The position numbers were made by a program, and so were the translations under genes. A stretch of DNA of 42,116 nt from sequence record MN850623.1. One strand, given 5' to 3'. Positions 11,324 through 32,330 of the stretch are shown one piece after another. A model generated the notes under the pieces. It saw only the letters and a list, made by a program, of their open reading frames with translations, searched no databases and was not told the DNA's origin. Every line of letters begins with the position of its first letter. Position 1 is the stretch's first letter. This DNA comes from Escherichia phage sortsyn.

Positions 11324-11366
11324 TAGCACTTTTTGCTAAAACACAAAACAGTTAATCAATTATCGT
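11324..11366 (+). promoter_or_regulatory. Promoter cassette copy A: palindrome TAGCACTTTTTGCTA plus -10-like region (weakest copy, no TG)
   Basis: Palindrome 11324-11338; upstream of dam. Confidence 0.4.
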
Positions 11367-11396
11367 TAGTCACCACCAACCAAAAAAGGGCAGCAG

Positions 11397-12038
11397 ATGA
11401 AAGACGAGAAAGACACCACCACGATCGACCATGTGGACGGCATGACCGAAGCGGAACGCGCAGCGGCAGACGTGACCACTGTTAGCGGTCGCCGCTTCAA
11501 CAAGTCCAAGACGCCGGACGCTATCCGCCAGAAGTGGCAGACCCCGCGCTGGCTGTTCGACTGGGCTGTGAAGCGCTTCGGGCAGTTCGGGATCGACGTC
11601 GCAGCGGAGAAAGCGAACGCGCTTTGTGACGTCTATCTGGACGAGAAAACGGACGCCCTCAAGGACGGCGTAGACTGGGGCGCGGAGGGCGGGCTGGCCT
11701 GGTGCAATCCTCCTTACGCCGAGCCGCTTCCGTGGATCGTGAAGGCTATCCAGCAAGCGAAGGATCGCGACGTTACGACCGTTTTCCTCCTGAACTCCGA
11801 CGCGTCCACGGCGTGGTTTAAGAAGGCGCTGGACGCCGGGAGCCTGGTTATTCACATCACCAGCGACGGCGAGAACTCCGGGCGCGTGGCGTTCGTGAAG
11901 GCAGGGACCGAAGTCGCGGGCAAGAAGAACAGCAAGCCGTCCGTGATGTTCGTTATCAAGCCGAAGAAGCGCGGACCGATCAAGACTGAATATCTGACCC
12001 AGGCGGAAATGATGTTCGAAGGCAAAACGATGATTTAA
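11397..12038 (+). CDS. dam: Phage Dam-family DNA N6-adenine methyltransferase
   Basis: WQTPRWLFDWAVKRFGQFGIDVAA...AWCNPPYAEP...TAWFKK: NPPY catalytic motif and the phage Dam (N6_N4 MTase) signature. Confidence 0.9.
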   Translation: MKDEKDTTTIDHVDGMTEAERAAADVTTVSGRRFNKSKTPDAIRQKWQTPRWLFDWAVKRFGQFGIDVAAEKANALCDVYLDEKTDALKDGVDWGAEGGLAWCNPPYAEPLPWIVKAIQQAKDRDVTTVFLLNSDASTAWFKKALDAGSLVIHITSDGENSGRVAFVKAGTEVAGKKNSKPSVMFVIKPKKRGPIKTEYLTQAEMMFEGKTMI

Positions 12039-12054
12039 CCGAGAGGACCCAGAG

Positions 12055-12636
12055 ATGATTATTTATGCACCAGTAAGCGCCTTACGCGCTCACCAACTCA
12101 CCAAAGGCCAGCAGGACGTCCGCTACTACCTGAACGCGCTCCACTTCATCGGGAACCGGATCCGCACGTCTAACGGTCATGTTTGCATGGAAAGCACTCA
12201 TAAGCTGGTAAACGCGCCGGAGGAGGGGATTATTCTCTCAATCTCCACGCCACCGACTGGGCGGATCTTCTCCGCCGTGATCGATACCGAAGCGGGGATC
12301 GTGTACTGGCTGGACATTCCGGCAGACAAGCCGAAGGACCTCGAAGAAGTGGACCACAAAAAGGCCCGCGTCGCTGTGGGGACCGTGGACATTGTGGAGG
12401 CTAATTATCCGAACGTGGACGCGTTACTGAACAAGGCCCGCGAGAACTCGAAGGCCGTCCACGAGATCGGCGTGGCGACGCCTTACCTCGGAATGGTCGA
12501 GAGGCTGGCGAAGAAGTTCGGGATCAAGATGCCTTTTGCGAAACTGAACTTTAACGGCGCAGCGGAGCCGATCCGCGTGAACCTGACCACGCCGGACGGC
12601 GAGGCAACCCTGATCATTATGCCCGCGAGAGTGTAA
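12055..12636 (+). CDS. Hypothetical protein
   Basis: 193-aa ORF, coding-like composition, same strand block, 16 nt after dam. Confidence 0.5.
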   Translation: MIIYAPVSALRAHQLTKGQQDVRYYLNALHFIGNRIRTSNGHVCMESTHKLVNAPEEGIILSISTPPTGRIFSAVIDTEAGIVYWLDIPADKPKDLEEVDHKKARVAVGTVDIVEANYPNVDALLNKARENSKAVHEIGVATPYLGMVERLAKKFGIKMPFAKLNFNGAAEPIRVNLTTPDGEATLIIMPARV

Positions 12637-12639
12637 GCA

Positions 12640-12873
12640 ATGAAATATAACGACGGTCACACTAATAGCCGCTGGGCCATCTTCCAGGAGAAGGTCGCGG
12701 ACGAGTTAATGGCGCGTAAGCTGGTGGCCTCCCGTGAGGAGGCCGAGCACTTCGCCGAGGCGCTCGATCTCTCTTTCGAGCAGGACTATAACCCGGTACA
12801 TATGGACCAGTGGGACGCGCTGATCAAGCGTGACGCCGACGAGTACGAGAAGGATCAGAACCGTGAAGCATAA
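12640..12873 (+). CDS. Hypothetical small acidic protein
   Basis: 77-aa ORF, D/E-rich, tightly packed in operon. Confidence 0.45.
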   Translation: MKYNDGHTNSRWAIFQEKVADELMARKLVASREEAEHFAEALDLSFEQDYNPVHMDQWDALIKRDADEYEKDQNREA

Positions 12874-13603
12874 GGCGATTTTCCTGTTTAACCTGACCCG
12901 GATCATGGTGGACAAGTGGCTGGAGGCTGGCGTGGAATGCTGGATGTATGACGGGCAGCACGAGCCAGGGATCCACCCAGACGCCGACGAGCCGAACCTG
13001 ATCCGTGTGGGCCGGATGTTCGACGCAGACAACACGGAAGTAGAAGCGCTCAGAATCGCCGATGAAGTCGGGCCGGGCGTGATCTTCGTGGCCTCCTTTG
13101 CTGAATGCACCGATCTAACCTGTACCGGGGCCAGATGGTGGGAAGCGAAGCGCAAGAAGGATCCGCGCTTCCAGGAGAAGGCCGTCGCGCTGGCGAAGAT
13201 GGTCGAGCAGGTGGCTACGTTTGCCGGGTACGAAAACGGCGACTATGAGGACAAAACGCTGGTCCCCTGGATGCTGGAGAATCCGAAGATCTCCCGGCTC
13301 TCGACCATGTGGCGACCTTGCGATCACTGGTTCCACCCCTACAACTTCGGCGGCTACTTGCCGGAGGATCACCAGCATAGCCTCTACCCGGAGATCTACC
13401 CAGCGCGGGACGCGTACCCGAAGCAGACGGGGATCTGGTGCGGTGGCGGCTTCCGCTTCCCGGCATTCCAGAGCGTCCAGGCTGTTAAGGATAATCCGGG
13501 CTGGTCGAAGCTGGGCGGATCCAGCACACGAACGAAGAACATCCGAAGCGCCACGCCCGAAGGCTTCGCCGTCGCGGTCTACATCGAAAACGCTCCATTC
13601 TGA
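12863..13603 (+). CDS. Hypothetical protein with conserved Cys/His/Trp-rich segments
   Basis: GTG at 12863 preceded by AAGGA, overlapping the upstream stop (ORF track start 12830 is the alternative); no family motif recognised. Confidence 0.55.
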   Translation: MKHKAIFLFNLTRIMVDKWLEAGVECWMYDGQHEPGIHPDADEPNLIRVGRMFDADNTEVEALRIADEVGPGVIFVASFAECTDLTCTGARWWEAKRKKDPRFQEKAVALAKMVEQVATFAGYENGDYEDKTLVPWMLENPKISRLSTMWRPCDHWFHPYNFGGYLPEDHQHSLYPEIYPARDAYPKQTGIWCGGGFRFPAFQSVQAVKDNPGWSKLGGSSTRTKNIRSATPEGFAVAVYIENAPF

Positions 13604-13606
13604 CAC

Positions 13607-13630
13607 AAGGCCCTCCGGGGCCTTTTTTGC
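13607..13630 (+). terminator. Rho-independent terminator
   Basis: Stem AAGGCCC/GGGCCTT then TTTTGC. Confidence 0.7.
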
Positions 13631-13633
13631 GTA

Positions 13634-13677
13634 TAGCACTTTTTGCTAAAGCAATGCCGATTATCCTTTGTTATTAT
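13634..13677 (+). promoter_or_regulatory. Promoter cassette copy B: palindrome TAGCACTTTTTGCTA plus TGtTATTAT extended -10
   Basis: Palindrome 13634-13648; TG 13669-13670; hexamer 13672-13677. Confidence 0.5.
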
Positions 13678-13705
13678 TCTTTCACACCAACACGAGGACG
13701 ACGAA

Positions 13706-13933
13706 ATGAAACAGACATTACTCCACACCAAAACAAACAAGGCTCAGATCGTGAACCCGCTGTTACTGAAACAGGCGCACATCCTGATCGAGACAGCGAT
13801 GATCCTCCGTAACCGCCTCAAGATGTACGCGGCGGGGCCACTGGCAAAGGCAGCGCTGACCCGCGAAGCGGTCCAGGCGGAGAACGACGCCCGCGAACTT
13901 ATCCGGGGGGCGTATGGCTACCCGGCCCACTAA
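13706..13933 (+). CDS. Hypothetical protein
   Basis: ATG at 13706 downstream of promoter cassette copy B (ORF track lists 13643). Confidence 0.4.
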   Translation: MKQTLLHTKTNKAQIVNPLLLKQAHILIETAMILRNRLKMYAAGPLAKAALTREAVQAENDARELIRGAYGYPAH

Positions 13934-14192
13934 GGCCACGCGCCGGGAGATCTGGGAGGCGGCTCAGGCCGCTAACCTGGACGAGATGATCAGTAAAGTG
14001 TCCGCCGTGTTTGGCAAAGACGCGATCGCCGACATCTCGATCGAGACTCCAGACGGCGAGATGTACCTGAACAACCCGGACCCGCATCACTACCGCGTCA
14101 CGCCGGGAACCAAAAGCGAGAAGGGCGACCTTAAGCGGGCGCTGGACTCAACGAAAAACCGGAAGCACCTCAAAGGAGGATCTCGTGGGTAA
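13914..14192 (+). CDS. Hypothetical protein
   Basis: 92-aa ORF overlapping the upstream gene by 20 nt. Confidence 0.4.
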   Translation: MATRPTKATRREIWEAAQAANLDEMISKVSAVFGKDAIADISIETPDGEMYLNNPDPHHYRVTPGTKSEKGDLKRALDSTKNRKHLKGGSRG

Positions 14193-14577
14193 AGTAACAG
14201 CGCAGATTATCGGATGGACTGACGAGCAGGACGCGGAACTGACCCGCCTCGCCGGGACCATGCCGCCGCACGAACTGGCGAAGCGCATCGGTCGCAACTT
14301 CCGCCAGATGCAGGTCCGGGCCTCTAAGCTGGGCCTCTCCCTGGCGTATAACCGGACGTACACGCAATGGACGACGGAGGAGGACCGGAAGCTGGTCCGC
14401 TTCTGGGAGGGACTTCTGACCGATGAGGATCTGGACGAACTGGTGATCGCCACTGGTCGCCGGGTGATAGTACCGACTGAACTCACCCACGCGCATGTCG
14501 CGAACTGGCTCAACAAATCGCGTCCGTCAATTCGCGGACGCCTGGCAAAATTCAAGAAAGAGGGGAAAATCGCATGA
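14185..14577 (+). CDS. GcrA-like DNA-binding transcriptional regulator (two WT[DT]E[QE]D repeats)
   Basis: WTDEQDAELTRLAG...HELAKRIGRNFRQMQVRASKLGLS resembles the GcrA N-terminal domain as recalled; second repeat WTTEEDRKLVRFWEG; GTG start with AGGAGG SD. Confidence 0.5.
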   Translation: MGKVTAQIIGWTDEQDAELTRLAGTMPPHELAKRIGRNFRQMQVRASKLGLSLAYNRTYTQWTTEEDRKLVRFWEGLLTDEDLDELVIATGRRVIVPTELTHAHVANWLNKSRPSIRGRLAKFKKEGKIA

Positions 14578-14675
14578 ACAACTTACGCGGACACAAATAC
14601 GTTATATGGGGCGTAATCGCAGCAAGCGCCGCGCTGTGGGCTTTAATCGGTTTCGGCGTGTCGATGGTACTATAA
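14574..14675 (+). CDS. Small hydrophobic (single transmembrane helix) peptide, 33 aa
   Basis: ATGA start/stop overlap with upstream gene; MNNLRGHKYVIWGVIAASAALWALIGFGVSMVL; ends right before a terminator. Confidence 0.35.
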   Translation: MNNLRGHKYVIWGVIAASAALWALIGFGVSMVL

Positions 14676-14712
14676 AAAAAGGGCCGCTTAAAAAGCGGCT
14701 CCTTTCGTTTTA
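14676..14712. terminator. Rho-independent terminator, bidirectional
   Basis: A-run, stem GGGCCGCT/AGCGGCTCC, then TTTCGTTTT. Confidence 0.7.
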
Positions 14713-14773
14713 ACGCCAGAGATGATCTACAATGCCGGGGCAGTATACCGCACAATTTCACGAGGACAAAATT

Positions 14774-15538
14774 ATGGCTTTTTGGCATCGGCAATACCGC
14801 GCTGATCTTTTCGGATGGAAGGTATCGCGCATCCTTGATCCCTCCGCTCCTGGTGTACATCAAAAAGATGTTATCTGGCTGGCGTCTGAACCTGCAAACC
14901 TCGATCCTACTGGGATGTTTTATTTCCAGCCTGATCCGAAGTCAGACCAGCCTCTCCAGTTTTTGGTAAACCTTAGCGGCAACAACGGCAGCGACGTCAC
15001 GGGATCATACGTGCCTAACGGCTCCTTAAAATCATTCTCCGTACAAGTAGCCGGGGGCGTTCCTCCGTATACCTTCGCATGGTTCCGGCGTTCCGGCGGC
15101 GTGGACAACTCCGTGGGGACTAACTCCAGCACCTACTCGATCCCCGCCTACTCCTCCAGCAATAACGGGGATTATTTTTGTCGCGTGACCGATGCGCAGG
15201 GCGTCATGATCGAATCGCTACGCGAGCGCACCAAAGTATTGATCAGGCTGACGACTAACCTCCCGTTAACTGATGCGTGGGCCGTGGGCGTGTCTGACAG
15301 CCTTGCGATCGTTGTCTCTGATGGCCTTACCCCGTATACCTACCAATGGCAGAAGTCCACGGACGGCGGGGCAACCTGGAGCAACGTCGCTAACGGTGGG
15401 ACCGTCTCCGGGGCCACTACTGCAACGCTGACCAACTCCGCCCCCGCGCTGGGTGATGCCGGAATGTACCGCTGTATTATCACCGACTCAGCGGGCTATA
15501 AAGTCCAGTCCGTACAATGCGCCGTAACGGTGGCATAA
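14774..15538 (+). CDS. Moron-like protein with two immunoglobulin-like domains
   Basis: Two Ig-type repeats (PPYTFAWFRRSGG...GDYFCRVTDAQG and TPYTYQWQKSTDGG...GMYRCIITDSAG); GAGGA SD before ATG 14774 (ORF track start 14732); flanked by terminators; first 60 nt about 52 percent GC. Confidence 0.7.
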   Translation: MAFWHRQYRADLFGWKVSRILDPSAPGVHQKDVIWLASEPANLDPTGMFYFQPDPKSDQPLQFLVNLSGNNGSDVTGSYVPNGSLKSFSVQVAGGVPPYTFAWFRRSGGVDNSVGTNSSTYSIPAYSSSNNGDYFCRVTDAQGVMIESLRERTKVLIRLTTNLPLTDAWAVGVSDSLAIVVSDGLTPYTYQWQKSTDGGATWSNVANGGTVSGATTATLTNSAPALGDAGMYRCIITDSAGYKVQSVQCAVTVA

Positions 15539-15568
15539 AAAAAGGGGGCCAACTGGCCCCCGATTTAT
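15539..15568. terminator. Rho-independent terminator, bidirectional, between convergent blocks
   Basis: A-run, stem GGGGGCC/GGCCCCC, then GATTTATT. Confidence 0.7.
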
Positions 15569-16902: not shown

Positions 16903-16947
16903 TGGAGGGATCCCTTTTAACAAGTGAGTGAACGCTAAAAGGGTAAA

Positions 16948-16976
16948 TGAAAAAAGAAAGGGCCGCAAAGGCCCTT
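16948..16976 (-). terminator. Rho-independent terminator immediately upstream of the lysis cassette
   Basis: Minus-strand stem GGGCC-TTTGC-GGCCC followed by TTTCTTTTTTC. Confidence 0.6.
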
Positions 16977-17000
16977 TTATGATTGATTGTTAAGTTATTG

Positions 17001-17312: not shown

Positions 17313-17317
17313 AATAT

Positions 17318-17554
17318 TTACCTCTTGCCTTTGACCTGGAGCCGCTGACGACGGCCCCGCGTTTTGTTGTTGTACTCCTCGTGGGATAACAGATCCCACG
17401 TCTCCCCCTCGTCCCACGTCACGAGCCGCCAGCTATAGCCCACGTTGAACGCTGATACCTTGCCGAACCCCTTCAACCGCTTAGGCGCGATCTCCTTCGC
17501 GTAGTAGCGGGCCAGAATCTCGTCGGCCTTCCGCTGGACCTTCTCCGGGATCAT
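17318..17554 (-). CDS. Hypothetical small basic protein
   Basis: Start ATG overlaps the stop of the upstream gene (ATGA), so coupling rather than a frameshift. Confidence 0.45.
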   Translation of the reverse strand: MIPEKVQRKADEILARYYAKEIAPKRLKGFGKVSAFNVGYSWRLVTWDEGETWDLLSHEEYNNKTRGRRQRLQVKGKR

Positions 17555-17928: not shown

Positions 17929-17969
17929 CTTCGACTCCTGGGTGGATGGCCCCCGAAGGGGCCGGGCTG

Positions 17970-18218
17970 TTAATACTCGTCGGCGCGGATCTTGTTACGG
18001 TGGATCAGGCGATTCAGTTCGAACTCGCCGCGAGTCATGAACTCGTCCACGCGTTCCTCCTGTTCCGGCTCCTCGCCTGTTAATTCCGGCGCTTTCCATG
18101 AGAGATAGCGCTTAACTGTGCCAGTTTTCACGAACGCCGGGAGCAGGTTTTTAAAGTTACGTGACCACTGACGCCCGCGCTCTTGATCGCCTTTTACCAT
18201 GATTGTTAAGTTTGCCAT
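17970..18218 (-). CDS. Hypothetical protein, first gene downstream of promoter cassette copy C
   Basis: 82-aa ORF beginning 47 nt after the cassette -10. Confidence 0.45.
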   Translation of the reverse strand: MANLTIMVKGDQERGRQWSRNFKNLLPAFVKTGTVKRYLSWKAPELTGEEPEQEERVDEFMTRGEFELNRLIHRNKIRADEY

Positions 18219-18264
18219 CGTTATCTCTCCGGTAGTGGGCGACCCATTGCCGCCCGGTGAAAGA

Positions 18265-18307
18265 ACTATAACAACATTTGATAAATCGCTTTTAGCAATT
18301 CGTGCTA
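18265..18307 (-). promoter_or_regulatory. Promoter cassette copy C (minus strand): palindrome TAGCACGAATTGCTA plus TGtTATAGT extended -10
   Basis: Palindrome 18293-18307; hexamer 18265-18270 on the minus strand. Confidence 0.5.
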
Positions 18308-18900
18308 TCCGGGTAAAGATATTCGCTCAACCGGGCCACCAGGTCCGAGTCCGGCCCGATCGGGTACAGCCCGCCGTCGTTGTTTACCGCGTGATGGATC
18401 TCAGCCAGCAATTGCTCCGCCCGCTGGAGCTTGTTCGTCGCCGCGTTATCATGCCCGATCAGCTTCGTGATCTCAGTCTCCAGGCGTCCGCCGAGTTCGG
18501 TCGTCGTGCAGTGTTCGGCCCACTCGCGAGACTCCAGCAGTTTGACCACGGCCCACACGTCCGAGTCGAGGCCGACAGTAGGGCCAGGCTGGAGCCGTGG
18601 CTGGAGTTCGTCGAGCGTCTGCTGGGTGGCGTTTAACGTCCGGCGGATCTTGTCCTGTTCGGACTTGCTCAGATCCAGGATAAGCGGATCAGGCGGCAGA
18701 CCCAGCAGCAGAGGGCGAACCTTTTCGAACGGCTCCACGCTCAGACAATCCTCCATCGTTCCCTCCTCCGTGTCGGGGAGCGTGTAGTGGAGCCGGGCGC
18801 GTCCGGTCTTTTCGTCCAGGCTGAACGAATTGATCGCGGCGATACTCAGGAACCACTCGCAATTAAATTCCGGCTCACCTACTGCGATATATCTGATCAT
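18292..18900 (-). CDS. Hypothetical protein
   Basis: 202-aa ORF; last five codons plus stop are encoded by promoter cassette copy C. Confidence 0.5.
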   Translation of the reverse strand: MIRYIAVGEPEFNCEWFLSIAAINSFSLDEKTGRARLHYTLPDTEEGTMEDCLSVEPFEKVRPLLLGLPPDPLILDLSKSEQDKIRRTLNATQQTLDELQPRLQPGPTVGLDSDVWAVVKLLESREWAEHCTTTELGGRLETEITKLIGHDNAATNKLQRAEQLLAEIHHAVNNDGGLYPIGPDSDLVARLSEYLYPDSTNC

Positions 18901-19340: not shown

Positions 19341-19367
19341 GTTCGCCTCCGTTGTTGTTCGTCTTTA

Positions 19368-19395
19368 AGCATACATGACGTAACAGTGATGTAAA
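19368..19395 (-). promoter_or_regulatory. Putative sigma70 promoter for the minus-strand block 19340 to 15565
   Basis: Minus-strand -35 TTTACA, 16-bp spacer, -10 TATGCT in the AT-rich divergent intergenic region. Confidence 0.4.
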
Positions 19396-19480
19396 GAGTT
19401 TTCTTTACTGGTGCGGATTGACGGCGTTATGAATCACTGTTAAGTTATGAACACTTTATTAACGCAGCAGGGAAAAGACA

Positions 19481-21169
19481 ATGACTGATTATGATGAAGT
19501 AATGCCGACACCAGAGCGCAGCGAGGAGGAGCTGATCGAGATGGTCCGGGGCGAGTTCTCCGGCCCGGTAACGCCTCCACCTGCTGACGACGTGCCAGAG
19601 GCTCCTATGGAGTTCTACGAGGAACAGGCCAGCCTGTACGCGGCGAGAGAAGCAGAATCCGCCCAGGATGCCGGGGCGTTCTTCGACTTCGACGAGCACG
19701 AGGCCGCAGAGTGGACGGCAACCGTCCGCAACGACAAGCCGACGATCGTCAAGACGTCCGACCTCACCGACGAGGAGAAGGACGAAGCACGTCGCCAGGA
19801 ACTCCTCGCGAAGCAGCGCGAGAAGCAGCGCAAGAAGATCGACGAGGCGCTGGCGGTCGAGGCAATGGACGACCCGCTGATCGCCAGCCTGAACAAGTCG
19901 AACGAGATCAAGCCCGTTAACTATGTGATCCAGTCGCTGATCCCGGAGCGCTCCGTGGGCTTCCTGGTCGGCGAGTCCGGCGCAAAGAAAACGTTCGCAG
20001 CGTTACAAATGGCGATTTGTGTCGCCACCGGGATCGACTTCGGCGGCTTGCCAGTCCGACAGGGATCCGTGATGTACTTCGCGCCGGAGGATGCGAGCGG
20101 CGTCCGTGAACGTTACGCGGGATGGAAGTACACGCAGAACAAGAACGAGCCGTTACCCAACTTTTGGGTATTGTCCCAGCAGGTCCCACTACACCGCGAG
20201 AGCGAACTCCAGACGTTCGCGGCAACCATCAAGGCGTCCCCGTTCTTCGGCCTGAACCCGCTTTCCCTGATCGTGATCGATACCTACAGCGCCAACAGCG
20301 CGGGCCAGAAAGTGGGCGAGCGCATGATCCCAGGCAAGGGCGACGAGCCGGACCGCTGGGAGGGCGGGACCGACTTCAACGAGAACGACAACAACGTGGC
20401 GGCGATCCTGATGCGTAACGCGGCGTTACTGGCTGAATGGCTTAACTGTGCCGTGATGATCATCCACCACACCGGGAAGGACACCGAGCGAGGCGCTCGT
20501 GGCGCGTCAACCCTCCGCGCTAACGCCGGATTCGAGATCATGGTGAAGAAGTGCAGGGACAAGGAGCTTTTTGTGATTGAGCACACGAAGGCCAAAGGCT
20601 GTGCGCTTCTCCCGGCGCGAGCCATGCGCACGAAGTCCGCGAAGTTACCGCCTGACCTGGTGAAGATGAAGCGCGAGGCGCTGGCGAGGATGCAGCCTGT
20701 ACGCCCGGAGGCGAAGGCCAACCCGGCGGCGTGGGAGATCGGCGACAACCTGGGGACGCTGGTCGTCATTAACGCGCTGGAGGCAGTGCCAGCCGAGAAG
20801 GACGAGGGCGAGAAGCCGGAGGACACGCGCAAGCGCAGCAAGAAGGAGGAACAGGCGATCCGACTGCTGGCCTACGTCGTGGAATACTCGCAGCAGCGCA
20901 AGGACAAGGGCTACCGCTTGCCGAAGCTGACCAAAGGCATGTTATCCGATCACTTCCGCAACTTCGCAGAGCCGCCGATTAAGCGGACGGACTTTTTCCA
21001 CGCCTTCGAACATGCGACCAAAAAAATGATGATCATCAAAATGGCAGGGGACGAAACGCTGACCGCCTCAACCGAAGCGGCTCCGCTCCTGGGTGGAATC
21101 CGGGATCAGAAGCCACTCCCGACCGACTGGAAACCGACCGAAGGATCCGACGATCTGAGTGACTTTTAA
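19481..21169 (+). CDS. RepA-like AAA_25/RecA-fold ATPase, putative replication initiator-helicase
   Basis: GFLVGESGAKKTFAALQMA (deviant Walker A), Walker B LIVIDTYS, IIHHTGKD motif typical of RepA/DnaB-like ATPases; acidic N-terminal region. Confidence 0.65.
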   Translation: MTDYDEVMPTPERSEEELIEMVRGEFSGPVTPPPADDVPEAPMEFYEEQASLYAAREAESAQDAGAFFDFDEHEAAEWTATVRNDKPTIVKTSDLTDEEKDEARRQELLAKQREKQRKKIDEALAVEAMDDPLIASLNKSNEIKPVNYVIQSLIPERSVGFLVGESGAKKTFAALQMAICVATGIDFGGLPVRQGSVMYFAPEDASGVRERYAGWKYTQNKNEPLPNFWVLSQQVPLHRESELQTFAATIKASPFFGLNPLSLIVIDTYSANSAGQKVGERMIPGKGDEPDRWEGGTDFNENDNNVAAILMRNAALLAEWLNCAVMIIHHTGKDTERGARGASTLRANAGFEIMVKKCRDKELFVIEHTKAKGCALLPARAMRTKSAKLPPDLVKMKREALARMQPVRPEAKANPAAWEIGDNLGTLVVINALEAVPAEKDEGEKPEDTRKRSKKEEQAIRLLAYVVEYSQQRKDKGYRLPKLTKGMLSDHFRNFAEPPIKRTDFFHAFEHATKKMMIIKMAGDETLTASTEAAPLLGGIRDQKPLPTDWKPTEGSDDLSDF

Positions 21170-21422
21170 CGGGGCGTTGTGTTCCGTTAACGTTATCCCC
21201 TCTCTTATAGAGAGAGGGATAAACGCGTAACGTTAACAACATATGCCGGAAAGTCTAAACAACGTTAACTATGAACTGAAAATTAACATAACAGATTCAT
21301 GAAGTTACAAGAGAAGTGTTAACAGGTTTATGGCAAATCGTTAATGCGGAAATCAGGGGGTAAAAATCGGGGGCCACCCCCGAAAAATCCCCGCTTAAAT
21401 AATCATTGATAAGTGATGCGAA
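21170..21422. other. Candidate replication origin: AT-rich non-coding region with GTTAAC-containing iterons and a ~28-bp imperfect palindrome
   Basis: 253-bp gap after the RepA-like gene; GTTAAC at 21186, 21232, 21254, 21318; AACGTTAAC repeated; palindrome TATCCCCTCTCTTATAGAGAGAGGGATA at 21195-21222; GC hairpin GGGGGCCACCCCC. Confidence 0.45.
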
Positions 21423-21641: not shown

Positions 21642-21938
21642 ATGATGATGAAAGACAATGCAGGGCAGAAATCAGGCGTCGCGGATATCTCGCGCATGTA
21701 TGTAGGCCCACACCAGCGCCAGACGTTGCTCGATAACGCTTACGCCCAGTTTAAGCGCAAGGGCTACACCCACAACCAGGCGACGGCGCTCGCACACCAG
21801 GCCGTCGAGAGCTTCCTCCACGACCACCGCAAGAAGCAACTGGAGGCCATCCAGAACGCGAACGCAGAGGACGCCGACCAGATGGCCCAGGACTTTATCG
21901 ACCAGGAACTGGGACCGAAAGGGGGCGCTGATGCGTAA
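21642..21938 (+). CDS. Hypothetical protein
   Basis: 98-aa ORF; GAGGAG directly abuts the first of three ATGs, so the true start may be 21645 or 21648. Confidence 0.45.
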   Translation: MMMKDNAGQKSGVADISRMYVGPHQRQTLLDNAYAQFKRKGYTHNQATALAHQAVESFLHDHRKKQLEAIQNANAEDADQMAQDFIDQELGPKGGADA

Positions 21939-22164
21939 GCCAATGACCACCGAGGAGATCAAGCTGATGGCGGAGGGACACCCGCCAGGCAAGATCGACC
22001 GCGACGCCGAGGAGGTGATTATGGACTTGTCCGGGCGCTGGGCCGCGCTGGAAGTCCTGGAGCGTGGTCTGGTCGAACTCCGGGAGAGCAGCGTCTCACC
22101 CCGGCAGCGCGACGCCTACGACACCGCAGCGACGATCGTCCGCAAGGTGAGGCTGGGGAAATGA
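21931..22164 (+). CDS. Hypothetical protein
   Basis: 77-aa ORF, overlapping neighbours. Confidence 0.4.
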   Translation: MRKPMTTEEIKLMAEGHPPGKIDRDAEEVIMDLSGRWAALEVLERGLVELRESSVSPRQRDAYDTAATIVRKVRLGK

Positions 22165-22343
22165 TCTGGCTCGCCTTCGCTTACGAGGTCCTGGTGATCG
22201 CCTGGATCGGCATGACCAGAGGGACCGACGCTATCCTGACCAACTGGGAAAAGCTGGCGGTCCTCGCGCCGTTCCTGCTGGCGTCTGGCTGGGCCGTCGT
22301 CGATCTGGTCCGTTCCATCCGTCGAATGAGAAAGGATAAATAG
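22161..22343 (+). CDS. Small membrane protein
   Basis: 60 aa, two hydrophobic segments; stop codon TAG is the first triplet of promoter cassette copy D. Confidence 0.4.
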   Translation: MIWLAFAYEVLVIAWIGMTRGTDAILTNWEKLAVLAPFLLASGWAVVDLVRSIRRMRKDK

Positions 22344-22383
22344 CACGAATTGCTAAAACGTCCCCGGTGATAATTGATAATAT
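22341..22383 (+). promoter_or_regulatory. Promoter cassette copy D: palindrome TAGCACGAATTGCTA plus TGaTAATAT extended -10
   Basis: Palindrome 22341-22355; TG 22375-22376; hexamer 22378-22383. Confidence 0.5.
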
Positions 22384-22431
22384 GTTTTCACCGGGCGACG
22401 AGACGCCCACCACGAACCAGAGGGCAAGACC

Positions 22432-22710
22432 ATGACAGCAGTCAACGCAACCACCAAAAAATATGCAGTTAAGCGCGGCCTGGACGTTACGATGGAAGAT
22501 ATCAACGACGACGGAAAGATCCTGCTGTGCGTGTGGGAAGCTGACAATGATTGTGAGTGGATGTTCTCCTATCTGGTCAACCCTAACGGCTCTTATACAT
22601 GGAATGGCAATATCTACCTCGACAGCAGCGTGAAAGAGGAATTGCCAGCCACTATCCGCGACGAGAAGCACCTCCGCGAAGTCCTGGCCTTCATCGCCGC
22701 GAACATCTAA
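22432..22710 (+). CDS. Hypothetical protein
   Basis: 92-aa ORF downstream of cassette copy D. Confidence 0.45.
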   Translation: MTAVNATTKKYAVKRGLDVTMEDINDDGKILLCVWEADNDCEWMFSYLVNPNGSYTWNGNIYLDSSVKEELPATIRDEKHLREVLAFIAANI

Positions 22711-23465: not shown

Positions 23466-23738
23466 ATGATCTACGAACTGATCGCCTCTTTCCTGATGCT
23501 GGGCGTCGCTTATATCTTCATGGAGTGCAGGGCGGGCGCAGCGGCCTACCTGGGCCGCAAGATGGCGGAGGAGGTGAGGGCCATCCCTCACTCCCTGATC
23601 CCTCTCGTCGCCTTCATCGTGGCATTGCTGGCGGTCCTCGTGCTGGCTGTTACGCTGGTGATCTGGCCCTACTTCGCGTGGAACGACTGGCGAAACGGGA
23701 CACTGTTCAAGGCCGGGCGTTATGACGGCATCGAATAG
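23466..23738 (+). CDS. Membrane protein
   Basis: Two predicted TM helices; stop TAG is the first triplet of cassette copy E. Confidence 0.45.
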   Translation: MIYELIASFLMLGVAYIFMECRAGAAAYLGRKMAEEVRAIPHSLIPLVAFIVALLAVLVLAVTLVIWPYFAWNDWRNGTLFKAGRYDGIE

Positions 23739-23778
23739 CACGAATTGCTAAAACGCACTTATCAAATGTTGTTATAGT
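23736..23778 (+). promoter_or_regulatory. Promoter cassette copy E: palindrome TAGCACGAATTGCTA plus TGtTATAGT extended -10
   Basis: Palindrome 23736-23750; hexamer 23773-23778. Confidence 0.55.
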
Positions 23779-23825
23779 TCTTCTCGACGGCGGGAAATGG
23801 TCCCGCCACTGACCGGGAGAACATC

Positions 23826-24026
23826 ATGAAATCATTAGCTGATACACTCGCAGACATTCAGGCCGAGATCGACCGCCAGAAGGCGAGCGGCGACGTCTCC
23901 CCGCTGGTGGCTGGTATCATCGCCCACGAGATGGCAGAGGCGGCAGACATTGAGCCGACCGAGTGGGACCTGATCGACGACGAAGCGGCTCTCCGCGCAC
24001 TGCCTGGCTACTACGACGGCTTTTAA
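23826..24026 (+). CDS. Small acidic protein
   Basis: 66 aa, strongly acidic; first gene after cassette copy E. Confidence 0.45.
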   Translation: MKSLADTLADIQAEIDRQKASGDVSPLVAGIIAHEMAEAADIEPTEWDLIDDEAALRALPGYYDGF

Positions 24027-24072
24027 CTCCACCAGCCCCGGCAACGGGGCAACCAACCAGAGGATCTACAGC

Positions 24073-25014: not shown

Positions 25015-25023
25015 GGGCCAGCG

Positions 25024-25052: not shown

Positions 25053-25055
25053 GTC

Positions 25056-25238: not shown

Positions 25239-25303
25239 CGCTTGCATGATGTACGCCCCGGCGATATGCTGGGGCCTTTCCACCCAACGAGAGAGATCGA
25301 ACA

Positions 25304-27104: not shown

Positions 27105-28704
27105 CCTCGATCGACTGGCTCGCCTGGAGGGGCGGGCCGCTTACGTCGCACGAGACGGCGGGCTGGTCTATGGCGTCTATGAGCCGGACGGGACCAGCGC
27201 CAAGCACTGCTACAACATGAAGAAGGTTAACGGAGAGTGGATCTACACCTCCGAGCCGCACGACATTACGATCGCGGAGTGTCTGACCCCGATCCTCCTC
27301 CGTCCGAAGCGCTTTATTATCCTGGTCGGGGGCCGTGGCTCCGGGAAGTCCCTCACCGTCGGCGGGATCATCGACGCGGACGCCCACGACGAGGCAGCGA
27401 GCGCGATGTGTCTCCGTGAGTACCAGGCATCGATCAAGGATTCAGTCCACCCGCTCCTCGTCAACCGGATCGAGGCTTACGGGCTGGACGGCTTCGAGGT
27501 ACTGGAGAAGGAGATCCGCCACTCCAACGGCGCGATCATCCGATTTAAGGGGATGGCCAGGGACCCGGCGGGCGTTAAGTCCGCGTTCGGCTTCCGTCGC
27601 TTCTGGGGCGAGGAGGCGCAGACCTTTTCCGCCGAGTCTCTCCGCCAGCTTACGCCGACCATGCGCGAAACGGGCGGCATGATGCTGTTCACCGCGAACC
27701 CCGGCTCCTCGGAGGATGCGTTCTCTCAGCGTTTTCTCATTCCATTCTGGGAGGATCTCCAGCGTGACGGCATCTACGAGGACGATCTCCACCTGATTAT
27801 CCGCGTGAACTGGGAAGATAATCCCTGGTTCCCCCCAGAGCTTCGATCGGAGATGGAGTTCGACCGCGTAACCCTCTCGAAAGCGCTGTTTGATCACGTA
27901 TGGGGCGGGATGTTTAACGACTCCGTACCGGATGCGATTATCCCGGCGGAATGGTTCGACGCGGCGATCGACGCCCACAAGAAACTCGGATTCAAGCCGT
28001 CCGGCATGAGGATCGGCGCACTCGACCCGGCGGACGTCGGGGCGGATAACAAGGCATACGGCGAGCGCTTCGGCTCCGTCGTCACCCATATGGAGGAATG
28101 GTTCGAAGGGGACGCGAACGACTCCGTAGACAAGGCGATCAACACGGCGAAGGACCACGGGATCGAGGCGTTCGTGTGGGACCGCGCCGGACTGGGCGCT
28201 GGCCTCCGTCGCCAGGTTACGGACTCATACGCCGGGACGAACGTCCTCGTAGACGGCTACAACGCCGGGGACGGCGTGAAGTTCCCGGACAACCCTGTGG
28301 AGCTGGATCACTGGCTCAACAACAAGGCGAAGGGCGACAACATTCAGAAGAATATCGACGCTTTCGCGAACCGTGGCTCCCAGGATATCTACCTGTTACG
28401 GAAGCGCTTCGAAAGGACTTACGAGGCCGTGGTGAAGGGCGTCTATCACAACCCGGACGACCTTATCAGCCTGGACAGCGAGGGGATCGGGGAGCATATG
28501 ACCAAACTCAGGGCCGAAGTGTGCCGCATCCCGCGCATTTACAACACGAACGGGAAGTTTGCCAGGATGCCAAAACCCCAAATGAGAACAAAACTCAAAA
28601 TGAAATCCCCAGGGATGGCGGACGTTCTTTGCATGTTAATGCAGCCACCGGAAGCGAAAAAAGAGGATGATTACAGCTATTATCAAGTGCCTAGCAACTC
28701 GTAA
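27082..28704 (+). CDS. Terminase large subunit
   Basis: Walker A VGGRGSGKS, ATPase plus nuclease domain layout, upstream of portal. Confidence 0.9.
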   Translation: MAKNRKDNLDRLARLEGRAAYVARDGGLVYGVYEPDGTSAKHCYNMKKVNGEWIYTSEPHDITIAECLTPILLRPKRFIILVGGRGSGKSLTVGGIIDADAHDEAASAMCLREYQASIKDSVHPLLVNRIEAYGLDGFEVLEKEIRHSNGAIIRFKGMARDPAGVKSAFGFRRFWGEEAQTFSAESLRQLTPTMRETGGMMLFTANPGSSEDAFSQRFLIPFWEDLQRDGIYEDDLHLIIRVNWEDNPWFPPELRSEMEFDRVTLSKALFDHVWGGMFNDSVPDAIIPAEWFDAAIDAHKKLGFKPSGMRIGALDPADVGADNKAYGERFGSVVTHMEEWFEGDANDSVDKAINTAKDHGIEAFVWDRAGLGAGLRRQVTDSYAGTNVLVDGYNAGDGVKFPDNPVELDHWLNNKAKGDNIQKNIDAFANRGSQDIYLLRKRFERTYEAVVKGVYHNPDDLISLDSEGIGEHMTKLRAEVCRIPRIYNTNGKFARMPKPQMRTKLKMKSPGMADVLCMLMQPPEAKKEDDYSYYQVPSNS

Positions 28705-28743
28705 TAGTTTGCGTGTATAATGCCGATGATATGACAAACGGAG

Positions 28744-29295
28744 ATGATTATGATCGGCATTGTGGACTATGACGGCGAGATGGTGGCTTGTAAGCATTGC
28801 GGAGAAGTTAAGGCAAGGACGCCGGATAACTTCGCTACTACGTCCGGCTATAAGGGGCGTAAATATGTTATGAAGGTATGCCGCAAATGCAAGAACAGCA
28901 GACACGCAGACAGGCAGCGGAAGAAGCGCGAGGCGGAGCCGGAGGTGGATCAGGCTATGCGTGAGGCAGTGAGGCGACACCGGGCAACCGGGCGAGGCTA
29001 TGCGGTATGCAAGATCAACACGTACCGAAGCCGTGACCGAAAGAAGGGCATGGAGTGCGATCTGGATCCAGACTGGTATCTGGAGAACATCACCGCCAAG
29101 CCCTGCTACTCATGCGGAGAGACGTCCGACACTATGGGCGCGGACCGCATAGACAACGACCTGGGACACATCAAGGGCAACGTTTTACCCTGCTGTGCTG
29201 ATTGCAATAGAATAAGGGCGCACCGTTTTACGATGGAAGATATGCGCGACCTAATCGGGCCAGCTATCGCAAAAGTGAAGGCAAGGCGGCTATAA
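28744..29295 (+). CDS. HNH endonuclease (free-standing, between terL and portal)
   Basis: GADRIDNDLGHIKGNVLPCCADCNRIRA HNH core plus Cys4 zinc ligands; AGA/AGG/ATA codon usage unlike neighbours. Confidence 0.8.
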   Translation: MIMIGIVDYDGEMVACKHCGEVKARTPDNFATTSGYKGRKYVMKVCRKCKNSRHADRQRKKREAEPEVDQAMREAVRRHRATGRGYAVCKINTYRSRDRKKGMECDLDPDWYLENITAKPCYSCGETSDTMGADRIDNDLGHIKGNVLPCCADCNRIRAHRFTMEDMRDLIGPAIAKVKARRL

Positions 29296-29325
29296 TCACG
29301 CCACTAACGACGAATACCGGAGATT

Positions 29326-31563
29326 ATGATGGCACGAGCAACGAAGAAGGCGCAGAACTGGCAGGAATGCGCACGTAATAAGTTAAGCGCCGCGATCGGG
29401 AGCGAGGAGTCCAGTCGTAAGAAGATGATCGAAACGGCCCGTTTCGTCCGCATTCCGGGCGCACAATGGGAAGGATCGACGAACTCCGGCTTTGCGATGG
29501 ATGATGAACGATTCCAGAAATACCCTCGATTCGAGCTTAACAAGGTCGGGCGCGAGGTGGATCGCATTATCACCGACTACCGCCTGAACCGCATCAATGT
29601 TACTTTCCGCCCGAAGGACACCCAGGCCTCCGAAGAACTGGCGGACAAGTTAAACGGCAAGTTCCGCGCAGACTTCCAGGAGTCGAACGGGCCGGAGTCC
29701 GTGGACAATACCTACGACGACGGCGTGACGGGCGGAATGGGCGCTTTTCGCATGGACACCGAACTGGAGGACGAGTTCGACCCGGACAACGAGGCCCGGC
29801 ATATTGTTTTCTATCCGATCTATGATCCGGCCTCGTGCCTGTTTATCGATCAGGACTCCAAAATGTACGATCGTTCGGATGCCATGTGGATGGCGGAGCT
29901 ATTCAGCATGACCCCAGACAAGTACGAGGAGAAATATCCCGACGCGCTCGCCCCGGAGGACCTGCTGGCGATGGACACCGGGAAGCAATTCGACTGGGCC
30001 ACGAAGGACGCGATCTATCTGGCGCGTTACTACGAGGTGAAGATCGAGGACACCACCGTGATCTCCTATAAGAACCCACTCACCGGGGACGTGGAGGTAT
30101 ACGACGAGGACGAGATCGAGCAGATCGAGGACGAGCTTAAGGCCGGAGGCTGGGAGCGCCAGAAGGACCGCAAGGTGAAACGCCGTAAGGTCTATTGCGG
30201 CCTAATGTCCGGCGGTGAATGGATCGAGGAGCCGAAGCTGATCCCGTTCGAATGGATCCCGATCTTCGTGTTCAACGCCCGCCGCTCGTTTATCGACAAC
30301 ATGGAGCGCGTAAGCGGTCACGCGACCCAGGCCCTCGACGCGCAACGTCTGGAAAACCTGATCGTGTCCATGATGGCGGACCAGGCCGCGCAGTCTGGCG
30401 GCGATAACATCCCGATCATGGATATCGACATGATTCCCGGCAAGCTGGCGGACGCCTGGGGGGAACGTAACACGAAGCGCCCGGCATACTTGCCCGCGAA
30501 ATCGCTCCGTAATGCCGCTGGTGAGGTCGTGCAGCAAGCCGGGCCACTGGGTTACACGCCATCGACTCCGCTCTCTCCAGCGCTGGCGGCGGTCCTCCAG
30601 TACACCGGGAGCACTATCCAGCAGATCGTCGGATCCTCCCAGGTCGAGGCCCTTCCGTCGAACCTTGCGACCGAAACCGTGGAGGCTATTTTCGCCCGCA
30701 TGGACGGCCAGGGCGCTCTCTACATGGACAACCTGGGGAAAACCCTCCGCCATTGCGGGCGTGTTTACCTCAGCGCGGCCCGCAAGGTCTACGGCTCGGA
30801 AAACTACGTCCGAATCAAGAACGAGGACGGGACCGACGATCTCGTGTTAATGACCGGGAAAGTGATCGACCGCGACACGGACGAGGCGATCGCGATTAAC
30901 GACCTCAAGCGCGGAAAATATGAGGTCGAGGCCGACGTGGGCGAGTCCAGCAGCACCAAACGGACTGCAACCGTCCGCAGCCTGACGACGCTCCTCCAGT
31001 CGATGGCACCAGGCGACCCGAACGCCGCCGTAGTCATGGGCCTGATCATCATGAACATGGACGGCGAAGGCTTGCAGGACTTCAAAGAGTACAGCCGCCG
31101 CCAGCTTCTCCTTAACGGCATTATCAAGCCGCAGACGGACGAAGAAAAAGCCCTTGTTCAACAGGCCCAGCAAGCGGCCCAGCAGCAGGAAAACCCGGAG
31201 ATGGTAGCCGCTCAGGGCGTAGCGCAGCAGGGACAGGCCGCAGTGATGGAGCAGGAGAACAAGCGCTTAGAATTGCAACTCAAGGCGCAGAGCACCGCGT
31301 CCGACGGCAATCTGAAACAGGCGCAGACGGTCAAGACGATGGCAGAGGCGGCAGCAATCCCGCAGGATCAGCTATTGAGCGCGATCGCCGTCCTCCAGAA
31401 GTACGTGAGCCAGCAGAACAGCGACGCCCACAAACAGGCGGATCTGTTCCTCAAGGCGCAGGGGCAAGGCCACAACCAGCAGGAGGATCGGAACGCTCGC
31501 GAGATGGCAGAACGCCAGGCGCAGCAGTCCGCCGATCGCCAGTTAGGACTCGCTGGCCTGTAA
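29326..31563 (+). CDS. Portal protein (P22 gp1-like)
   Basis: Colinear similarity to P22 portal as recalled (FYEV...EDT, KRRKVY, IPIFVF segments) and a Gln/Ala-rich C-terminal barrel region (LVQQAQQAAQQQENPEMVAAQGVAQQGQAAV). Confidence 0.92.
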   Translation: MMARATKKAQNWQECARNKLSAAIGSEESSRKKMIETARFVRIPGAQWEGSTNSGFAMDDERFQKYPRFELNKVGREVDRIITDYRLNRINVTFRPKDTQASEELADKLNGKFRADFQESNGPESVDNTYDDGVTGGMGAFRMDTELEDEFDPDNEARHIVFYPIYDPASCLFIDQDSKMYDRSDAMWMAELFSMTPDKYEEKYPDALAPEDLLAMDTGKQFDWATKDAIYLARYYEVKIEDTTVISYKNPLTGDVEVYDEDEIEQIEDELKAGGWERQKDRKVKRRKVYCGLMSGGEWIEEPKLIPFEWIPIFVFNARRSFIDNMERVSGHATQALDAQRLENLIVSMMADQAAQSGGDNIPIMDIDMIPGKLADAWGERNTKRPAYLPAKSLRNAAGEVVQQAGPLGYTPSTPLSPALAAVLQYTGSTIQQIVGSSQVEALPSNLATETVEAIFARMDGQGALYMDNLGKTLRHCGRVYLSAARKVYGSENYVRIKNEDGTDDLVLMTGKVIDRDTDEAIAINDLKRGKYEVEADVGESSSTKRTATVRSLTTLLQSMAPGDPNAAVVMGLIIMNMDGEGLQDFKEYSRRQLLLNGIIKPQTDEEKALVQQAQQAAQQQENPEMVAAQGVAQQGQAAVMEQENKRLELQLKAQSTASDGNLKQAQTVKTMAEAAAIPQDQLLSAIAVLQKYVSQQNSDAHKQADLFLKAQGQGHNQQEDRNAREMAERQAQQSADRQLGLAGL

Positions 31564-31594
31564 CTGGTCGGACCGCACGAAAAGCTAAAGACAA

Positions 31595-31620
31595 GCCCGG
31601 CAAGTCCGGGCTATTCTTTG
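31595..31620 (+). terminator. Terminator-like hairpin after portal
   Basis: Stem GCCCGG/CCGGGC then TATTCTTTG. Confidence 0.5.
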
Positions 31621-31658
31621 CCTCGACACATCACTAAACCATTACAAAGGAGTTTTGA

Positions 31659-31880
31659 ATGGCCCGATCACTGATAGCAGTCAAAGACGCCGCCGGGGAA
31701 AAGTATCTCCTCCCGGTCCGTAACATCGTGAGCGTGACGGAGTTCCCGGACAACGAGCGCCGCGTGGAGGTCAAAGTCCGCGAGCCGATCAACGGCCCAG
31801 ACGGGCGGATCTGTGGGTACGAGTTAAATCTGTATTACTCGCCAATGTCGATCGCACAATTCGAAGGGGCTTACGCATGA
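31659..31880 (+). CDS. Hypothetical protein
   Basis: 73-aa ORF. Confidence 0.45.
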   Translation: MARSLIAVKDAAGEKYLLPVRNIVSVTEFPDNERRVEVKVREPINGPDGRICGYELNLYYSPMSIAQFEGAYA

Positions 31881-32290
31881 ACCAGGAAAAAGTAATCCGC
31901 GCCGTTCTTCTGGCTCAGGCCGACGAGATGGGGATCCTCGACAAAGTGAAGGCGCACGAGGCCCGCCTGGCGGCTCGCTTCATCCAGCAGCCGACCGAGG
32001 AGGATCTGGCGGCGTATGGCCTGGCGCTGGCGCTGGTCGGCGCTCGCGCTTCGGAACTCATGACCAACGCGGAGCCGCAGGTGAAGGCGGGCGAGGTGGA
32101 ACCCGCTCCGATCGAGGTGGACCTGATGCCGACGGCGGAGCAGGTGGAGGCGGGCATTAAATCCCTGTGGGACGTCATACCGGGCGCGATGGATCAAGTC
32201 GTGCAGGACGACCCGGACGGCTCGGACGCGGTATTTTCTGACGCGGTGACGTTCGTCTGGCAAGGCATGATCGGCGCTCGCGCCAAATAG
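31877..32290 (+). CDS. Hypothetical protein
   Basis: 137-aa ORF; stop TAG is the first triplet of cassette copy F. Confidence 0.45.
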   Translation: MNQEKVIRAVLLAQADEMGILDKVKAHEARLAARFIQQPTEEDLAAYGLALALVGARASELMTNAEPQVKAGEVEPAPIEVDLMPTAEQVEAGIKSLWDVIPGAMDQVVQDDPDGSDAVFSDAVTFVWQGMIGARAK

Positions 32291-32330
32291 CACGAATTGC
32301 TAAAACAGCCTGATTATCAAATGTTATATT
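32288..32330 (+). promoter_or_regulatory. Promoter cassette copy F: palindrome TAGCACGAATTGCTA plus TGtTATATT extended -10
   Basis: Palindrome 32288-32302; hexamer 32325-32330. Confidence 0.55.

Follow-up and report, generated by a model that had tools for sequence, protein, structure and literature searches.

Marbox-like elements in place of the -35 sequence at predicted σ70 promoters of Escherichia phage sortsyn

The DNA analyzed here (the window, 42,116 bp; MN850623.1) is the nearly complete genome of Escherichia phage sortsyn, a P22-like podovirus of the genus Murrayvirus with a GC content of ~59% and 96.5% identity to Enterobacteria phage IME_EC2. Sortsyn does not encode an RNA polymerase (RNAP), and its genome contains seven copies of a short element that lies at a nearly constant distance upstream of a σ70 -10 hexamer. 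The arrangement of these cassettes argues strongly that they are activator-type σ70 promoters that lack a -35 element. In addition, the element matches the marbox, the site read by the host regulators MarA, SoxS, and Rob, which points, with less assurance, to a host protein of this family as the probable activator. A first-pass annotation of this DNA had described the element as a palindrome that is read by a dimer and governs a phage-specific regulon; the promoters and their class II geometry are upheld below, whereas the palindromic unit, the dimer, and the phage-specific regulon are not.

A repeated, asymmetric element

The palindrome TAGCA-N5-TGCTA occurs at exactly six sites in sortsyn: 11324, 13634, 18293-18307 (minus strand), 22341, 23736, and 32288 (designated S1 to S6, respectively). 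Dinucleotide-shuffled sequences (n = 100) contain it 0.03 times on average, and it is the sole 5-bp-arm palindrome that is enriched in the genome. As had been noted in the first-pass annotation, the arms are perfect in all six copies, the spacers are CGAAT (four copies) or CTTTT (two copies), every palindrome points to its next gene, and in three copies the TAG of the palindrome provides the stop codon of the upstream open reading frame (ORF), with ORFs ending at 22343, 23738, and 32290. The AAA that was said to follow each palindrome is present in five copies, but S2 (13634) has AAG instead. At S3, on the minus strand, the upstream ORF crosses the palindrome and ends at a TAA made by the palindrome's last two bases. 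A search with the marbox consensus surfaced an extra, non-palindromic member at 31572-31589 (site 7), which is absent from the first-pass annotation.

Alignment of the six palindromic copies indicates that the conserved unit is an asymmetric 18-mer, A-TAGCAC-(G/T)(A/T)(A/T)TT-GCTAAA. Only the 5-bp arms are symmetric. The invariant flanking bases, A(-1), C(+5), and AA(+15/+16) as counted from the palindrome start, have no symmetric partners, and complementarity is lacking in the conserved pairs A(-1)/A(+15) and C(+5)/T(+9). This unit fits the marbox closely. The consensus AYnGCACnnWnnRYYAAA, which is reportedly that of Martin et al. from 1999, is matched by all seven sites with 0 mismatches over 18 positions (0.03 expected); when checked on Escherichia coli K-12 DNA, the same consensus has 0 mismatches at micF and 1 at mar. 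The definition 5'-gcannwwntgnnaaa-3' (PMC12052159) is matched with 0 mismatches by six of the seven sites (0.13 expected) and with 1 by site 7. The phage block also fits the contact scheme of the two recognition helices, CACN-7N-AAA (PMC8811837), and the soxbox, with its GCAC A-site and AAA B-site (PMC9638938). At every one of the seven sites, the marbox is in the forward orientation, pointing to the -10, the Shine-Dalgarno sequence, and the ATG that lie downstream.

There is also a superficial resemblance between TAGCAC....TTGCT and the -24/-12 sequence of σ54 promoters, TGGCAC-N5-TTGC. However, the AG-GC distance is 8 nt rather than 10, a spacing that rules this reading out, and AG is present instead of GG. 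Furthermore, a σ70-type -10 is fixed 22 nt downstream, and no enhancer-binding protein was found among the scanned ORFs. The probability that these are σ54 promoters is vanishingly small.

Promoter geometry

The -10 sequences are TATCGT (S1), TGtTATTAT (S2), TGtTATAGT (S3 and S5), TGaTAATAT (S4), and TGtTATATT (S6). A TG is positioned upstream of the hexamer in five of the six palindromic cassettes (all but S1) and in five of seven overall. An extended -10 had been thought to lie at exactly +37 from the palindrome start in five of six copies; the hexamer is indeed at +37 in five and at +38 in S2, but S1, one of the five, lacks the TG, and S2 is extended at the longer distance. Measured from marbox position 1, the hexamer begins at 38 nt in five cassettes, 39 nt in S2, and 40 nt in site 7. 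At micF in K-12 DNA, the distance from marbox position 1 to the first base of the -10 hexamer TAGAAT is likewise 38 nt; there, position 1 lies at -51 from the annotated RNA 5' end, and the center of the 20-bp box is at -41.5. If transcription starts 7-8 nt past the hexamer, as predicted, the center of the phage box would fall at ~-40.5 to -41.5.

Such a position would be that of a class II site. A class II marbox promoter has been defined as one in which a forward marbox overlaps the -35 (PMC12052159); the SoxS box at micF is forward with its center at -41.5 (PMC9638938), and a RamA class II site lies at about -41 (PMC8811837). (A published table lists -41 for rfaY and -39 for fumC, with an ambiguous definition of the coordinate.) The class II combination of a poor -35 and a recognizable σ70 -10 is present in all seven sites: the best match to TTGACA at 16-18 bp from the -10 is only 2-3 of 6 in six sites and 4 of 6 in site 7. 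A scan of sortsyn for canonical σ70 promoters misses all of the cassettes, and the same scan recovers two ordinary, divergent early promoters, at 10370+ and 19395-. The earlier proposals of a promoter cassette, with a -10 (often extended) at a fixed distance, and of an upstream element centered near -41 from the predicted start, where a class II activator would sit, both stand. The cassettes and their parts are as follows.

11323..11340 (+): S1 marbox-like 18-mer ATAGCACTTTTTGCTAAA; palindrome 11324-11338; upstream of dam
11361..11366 (+): S1 -10, TATCGT, not preceded by TG; marbox position 1 is 38 nt away; -35 match at most 3/6
11397-12038: dam gene, with a Dam Pfam match
13607-13624: terminator-like hairpin, directly followed by the S2 18-mer
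13633..13650 (+): S2 marbox-like 18-mer ATAGCACTTTTTGCTAAA; upstream of 13706-13933 and a block ending in a Hoc-like gene
13669..13677 (+): S2 extended -10, TGtTATTAT; hexamer 13672-13677, one base farther than in the others
18291..18308 (-): S3 marbox-like 18-mer ATAGCACGAATTGCTAAA; overlaps the 3' end of ORF 18292-18900
18265..18270 (-): S3 -10, TATAGT, preceded by TG
18237..18255 (-): S3 leader hairpin; 7-bp GC stem, -13.6 kcal/mol, ~4 nt past the predicted start
17970-18218: downstream of S3, with a block leading to the lysis genes
22340..22357 (+): S4 marbox-like 18-mer; TAG at 22341-22343 is the stop of ORF 22161-22343
22378..22383 (+): S4 -10, TAATAT, preceded by TG; alternative GATAAT at 22376-22381
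22393..22408 (+): S4 leader hairpin, GGGCG-acgaga-CGCCC
22432-22710: downstream of S4, plus a cluster of small genes
23735..23752 (+): S5 marbox-like 18-mer; TAG is the stop of ORF 23466-23738
23773..23778 (+): S5 -10, TATAGT, preceded by TG
23789..23807 (+): S5 leader hairpin, GGCGGGA-aaugg-UCCCGCC; -14.2 kcal/mol
23826-24026: downstream of S5; block through to terminase and portal
31572..31589 (+): site 7, non-palindromic marbox-like 18-mer ACCGCACGAAAAGCTAAA; follows portal and precedes 31659-31880
31594..31617 (+): hairpin in the spacer of site 7, AGCCCGG-caagt-CCGGGCT; resembles a terminator and overlaps the -10
31612-31617 (+): site 7 -10, TATTCT; partial -35, AAGACA, at 18 bp
32287..32304 (+): S6 marbox-like 18-mer; TAG is the stop of ORF 31877-32290
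32325..32330 (+): S6 -10, TATATT, preceded by TG
32340..32359 (+): S6 leader hairpin, GGCGGGGA-augg-UCCCCGCC; about -18 kcal/mol, z -2.9
32381-32818: downstream of S6; scaffold and capsid genes, virion block

A degenerate second palindrome, TATCAAATGTTGTTA, is seen at 18269-18283 and 23760-23774, 24 bp downstream of S3 and S5 and in overlap with the -10; either a chance occurrence in AT-rich sequence or another protein site could account for it.

The leaders of S3, S4, S5, and S6 contain GC hairpins, ~4 nt past the predicted start, which the earlier work had overlooked. The stems, with energies between -9.6 and about -18 kcal/mol, have dissimilar sequences, and the hairpins probably act as stabilizers of the 5' end. 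No such leader hairpin is present in S1 or S2. In site 7, a terminator-like hairpin lies in the spacer and abuts the -10, a design that is common in T1-like cassettes. An Rfam scan of the window gave no matches. Upstream of many genes in sortsyn, a GC hairpin comes before a ribosome-binding context of the form CCACC/CCAAC...GAGAG (for example, 24050-24072, 25280-25303, and 17929-17960 on the minus strand); this context is also seen in Sortsnevirus and is not confined to the marbox cassettes.

Murrayvirus relatives and Sortsnevirus

Sortsyn was compared with seven relatives: the Murrayviruses IME_EC2, KMB41, Lumpael, and ST231, and the Sortsneviruses Sortsne, IME279, and Kc237. The four Murrayviruses carry cassettes at positions matching those of sortsyn, and site 7 is kept in all five members of the genus. 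In the Murrayvirus variants TCGCAC, GTTAAA, and CGAAAAGC, the palindrome is lost with no compensating change, but the marbox consensus remains intact; a single variant among the relatives, AGAGCAC in S6 of KMB41, breaks the consensus.

A perfect marbox is not found in Sortsne, IME279, or Kc237. Rather, at four orthologous promoters the Sortsneviruses have consensus-like -35 hexamers (TTGCGA/TTGCGG/TTGCGC, TTGTGA, TTGCAT, and TTTACA) positioned 17 bp from the same -10, a replacement of the marbox that is expected if the Murrayvirus versions depend on an activator. When Sortsne 39258-39340 is set against window positions 23736-23778, the Sortsnevirus promoters show TTGCAT or TTGCGA at 17 bp from the -10, and Murrayvirus shows the marbox TTGCTA, 22 bp from it. 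Gain or loss of 5 bp could interconvert the two promoter types.

The cassette in T1-like phages

The exact 15-mer GCACGAATTGCTAAA is present in many copies per contig in 46-53 kb contigs of IMG/VR, and the contigs that bear it are T1-like Drexlerviridae (Ec_L1, Webervirus, Tunavirus, and others). The cassette extends across hundreds of T1-like genomes, whose virion lineage is unrelated to that of Murrayvirus, and in its 58-nt form it is present in 244 phage records. This search beyond the close relatives speaks against the idea of a phage-specific regulon, since the same 18-mer and spacing are found throughout the T1-like Drexlerviridae. In phage T1 itself, both strands carry marbox sites, 17 of them perfect and 8 with one mismatch; the spacers are GAA, TTT, TAA, AAA, and CTT, and the second box is GCTAAA or GTTAAA. 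Promoters are not annotated at the 58-nt cassette in any of 60 GenBank records sampled, and the T1 record lists terminators only.

The IMG/VR loci provide 463 unique contexts. In 345 of these the -10 is best placed at +37, a fixed spacing that argues for a joint read-out of the element with RNAP. Position -14 is a G in 75% of the contexts; at +12, C (73%) predominates over T (26%). There is also a conserved A at +49, which is probably the transcription start.

The -10 of T1-like cassettes lies between the arms of an inverted repeat, as in GGGGTAA...TATAGTTACCCC (T1 4344-4420), that ends just before the likely start. Both arms of this repeat would occur only in read-through transcripts, and it may be a terminator, a processing site, or a feature that acts at the DNA level. 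The 18-mer also lies within T1-like coding sequence, where ATA GCA CGA ATT GCT AAA (T1 40308-40325) encodes IARIAK; this gene is related to the window ORF 13914-14192.

What reads the element

These distributions bear on whether a factor is involved and, if so, which one. In principle, the extended -10 could be sufficient for promoter activity, with the conserved block being instead a punctuation unit of stop codons and terminators or a hotspot for recombination between modules. This reading would be consistent with the TG before the -10 in five of seven cassettes and the frequent G at -14 noted above, with the provision of stop codons to three upstream genes, and with the location of the cassettes at module boundaries, common to otherwise mosaic genomes. 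Yet 345 of the 463 contexts have precisely the same distance to the -10, the -10 of S1 is weak and lacks a TG, and the sister genus, which is without the block, needs a consensus-like -35. A factor-free promoter is consequently judged improbable.

We assign a similarly low probability to a symmetric dimer encoded by the phage, an XRE or other small protein that would act from the 15-bp palindrome, centered at -41.5, as the class II activator or repressor of a phage-specific regulon. The perfect arms in six copies, the status of this palindrome as the only enriched one, and half-site centers that are 10 bp apart, as suits a helix-turn-helix dimer, would favor this arrangement, and sortsyn encodes both an XRE-type protein and, just upstream of S4, a 77-aa protein found only in Murrayvirus. 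However, the conserved flanks are asymmetric, non-palindromic site 7 is kept in five Murrayviruses, and natural variants break one arm without compensation, as does the mixture of C and T at +12. Symmetry across the whole conserved site that is upheld in variants, as would be characteristic of a dimer operator, was not found, and the symmetric palindrome of the first-pass annotation is not supported as the unit that is read. Nor do the proteins track the site: XRE is present in the site-less Sortsneviruses, while T1-like phages have a homolog of neither XRE nor the 77-aa protein. Finally, the ATCAC/GTGAT cores within the spacers of the early promoters (see below) better suit an XRE operator.

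The search for a binder encoded by the phage covered several candidates. Two regulator-like proteins are present in the window: the 77-aa XRE protein (4736-4969, minus strand; PF01381 at 5.8e-14), whose conservation in Sortsneviruses is 72%, and a protein of 130 aa with two repeats (14185-14577, phrog_323). Both are also found in the motif-less Sortsneviruses; XRE has no homolog in T1-like phages, the 130-aa protein is unrelated to T1 ST23, and for neither does the gene co-occur with the site in the manner of a cognate regulator. The proposal that XRE and GcrA-like proteins of the phage are the binders is likewise unsupported, as these are 70-75% conserved in motif-less Sortsneviruses and neither family is common to T1. 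ST23 of T1 was rejected as a common regulator because its PHROG family differs from those of both window regulators, and the 77-aa Murrayvirus-specific protein (21931-22164) was rejected because its homologs are confined to Murrayviruses. A homolog of MarA, SoxS, or Rob was sought by tblastn with K-12 queries in the window, the seven relatives, and 1.02 Mb of motif-bearing loci, and no credible one was found; the best match (E = 0.01) lies inside an HNH endonuclease gene. No AraC-type domain was detected by Pfam among the 40 window ORFs scanned.

It is unlikely, though less so than a dimer, that another monomeric protein, either an unrecognized one of the phage or one of the host, reads the asymmetric site, with the likeness to the marbox arising by convergence or mimicry. 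Conservation is very strong at positions outside the marbox consensus, most of the small phage ORFs belong to no recognizable family, and the 130-aa protein with its two repeats could read a bipartite site. But this protein has the distribution described above, and what Murrayviruses and T1-like phages have in common are enzymes for replication and recombination, methylases, and a single 92-aa protein of unassigned function, which is also in Sortsneviruses. In addition, the phage sites agree with those of the host in sequence, in orientation, and in the 38-nt spacing. Given that no phage-coded candidate is common to both motif-bearing groups, a host protein that reads marboxes is the simplest explanation.

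A possible mechanism

Start sites, the identity of the binder, and activation itself are all predictions made from the sequence. In place of a -35, each promoter has an asymmetric 18-20 bp element, A-Y-n-GCAC-nnW-nn-RYY-AAA, centered ~41 bp upstream of the predicted start. In enterobacteria, a monomer of the MarA/SoxS/Rob(/RamA) family binds this element, with one helix-turn-helix on GCAC and the other on the AAA box, and recruits RNAP through σ70 Region 4 and the α subunit's C-terminal domain. We propose that the phage borrows the host protein. Rob is the most likely candidate because it is made constitutively, with MarA or SoxS perhaps adding to its effect under stress. Transcripts would begin ~7 nt past the hexamer and, in four of the cassettes, would start with the GC hairpin, followed by the ribosome-binding site. 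The broader proposal, that T1-like Drexlerviridae and Murrayvirus podoviruses wire most of their promoters to the activators of the host Mar/Sox/Rob stress regulon, is a real possibility that falls just short of being probable.

Several observations weigh against a host activator of this family. Position 19 of the consensus (Y) is A or G in the phage sites. Positions that are free in the marbox are tightly kept among the 463 contexts (A+1 in 92%, T+9 in 93%, and T+13 in 96%), which could mean that the binder has a narrower specificity than MarA, SoxS, or Rob, and the T that the phages have at +13 corresponds to a preferred C in the SoxS-specific soxbox. In unstressed cells, MarA and SoxS are scarce and Rob is described as largely inactive, yet T1 grows fast in plain broth. 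The extended -10 alone may suffice for activity without a factor. In addition, Murrayviruses and T1-like phages have a replication module in common, and the cassette may have spread with this module rather than having been selected independently by a host factor.

No paper with the motif strings or with a link between a marbox and a phage promoter was found in a literature search that left subscription-only works, including the T1 and Rtp genome papers, outside its scope. Papers on sortsyn's phage group do not discuss promoters.

Implications

T1 and hundreds of Klebsiella, Escherichia, and Shigella phages that are candidates for therapy encode no RNA polymerase, and their promoters are unannotated in GenBank; if the binder is a host activator, this would fill a long-standing gap for these phages. 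The cassette also offers a simple rule, based on sequence, with which the promoters and transcription units of these genomes can be annotated. The location of the marbox TTGCTA 5 bp upstream of the sister-genus -35 position also suggests a route by which activator-dependent and constitutive promoters could be converted into one another.

If the assignment to the MarA/SoxS/Rob family is correct, phage development would be tied directly to the mar/sox/rob (and ram) regulators of antibiotic resistance, and phage gene expression would be conditional on, and an indicator of, host stress caused by antibiotics, oxidants, or bile. Strains made multidrug-resistant by overexpression of MarA, SoxS, or Rob (or, in Klebsiella, RamA) would then serve the phage better as hosts, and one mutated in rob, marA, and soxS would serve it poorly. 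Phage and antibiotic treatment would also be expected to interact, as would a dependence on bile, salicylate, or oxidants be expected.

Other features of the genome

The early promoters have the sequences TTGTAA-18-TATAGT at 10370+, TTTACA-16-TATGCT at 19395-, and TTGACG-17-TAAGTT at ~19424+, the last of which was read by eye. Each of their spacers contains an ATCAC/GTGAT core, in the form of the inverted pair AACAGTGAT / ATCACTGTT and of AAGCGTGAT (regions 10363-10424 and 19341-19480), and ATCACGGAGACGTTAA precedes the start of the XRE gene (4970-4995, minus strand). These cores are probably the operator of the XRE/Cro-like protein. Sortsneviruses have related ATCACGA-N5-TTAA elements; a loose scan for the Sortsnevirus-type ATCAC...GTTAA motif was too noisy for use.

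The long intergenic region at 21170-21400, next to the gene for an AAA_25 ATPase (19481-21169), combines multiple (A)ACGTTAAC repeats with an extended palindrome, TTATCCCCTCTCTTATAGAGAGAGGGATAA, and looks like a replication origin with iterons. A 94-aa protein (4459-4743, minus strand) has a Tad2-like anti-Thoeris domain (PF11195, 2.3e-22) and, among the relatives compared, is present only in sortsyn and IME_EC2. Within the block driven by S3, a 77-aa protein (17318-17551, minus strand) has a ParE-like toxin domain (PF24732, 5e-18). Between terminase and portal lies an ORF for a 183-aa cysteine-rich, HNH endonuclease-like protein (28744-29295); its absence from all seven relatives suggests that it is likely a mobile endonuclease insertion.

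Comparison with known systems

At lambda PRM, the cI site lies near -42 and cI contacts σ Region 4, and sortsyn, too, encodes an XRE-type protein. However, operators of the Cro/cI type are symmetric dimer sites, whereas the sortsyn site is asymmetric and XRE does not track the motif across genera. Middle and late promoters of phage Mu have a -10 without a -35 and a dyad-like Mor or C site in the low -40s, from which a small activator recruits host σ70 polymerase (PMC2582627, PMC4461284). The sortsyn cassettes have the same combination of a -35-less -10 and, as predicted, an activator site in the low -40s, but Mor and C are phage-encoded dimers that bind symmetric sites, unlike the asymmetric site of sortsyn. 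A Mor/C reading of the cassettes was also rejected on the grounds of position and of the lack of a Mor-family Pfam match among the 40 ORFs scanned.

In T4 middle promoters, a MotA box that contains TGCT replaces the -35; it is centered about -30 and needs the phage proteins MotA and AsiA. The sortsyn element is similar in that a TGCT-containing box stands in place of the -35 and would work with a σ70 -10. It differs in that the box is at ~-41, and this position, together with the lack of a MotA or AsiA match among the scanned ORFs, led to the rejection of a MotA-type reading.

The closest parallel is with the class II MarA/SoxS/Rob promoters of E. coli (micF, fumC, rfaY P1, and lpxL P1). Binding of host proteins to the phage sites is a prediction, and the sites are located in the genome of a virulent phage, not in a host stress regulon. 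They are also near-identical, near-consensus copies (seven in sortsyn and ~25 in T1), whereas host sites are degenerate; they have the additional conserved bases A+1, T+9, and T+13; and many of the cassettes have a TG extended -10 and are coupled to hairpins in the leader or spacer. Nevertheless, the phage cassettes and the E. coli promoters have in common a forward GCAC...AAA box with 0 mismatches that overlaps a poor -35, a σ70 -10, a box center near -41 (as predicted for the phage), and the 38-nt spacing of micF.

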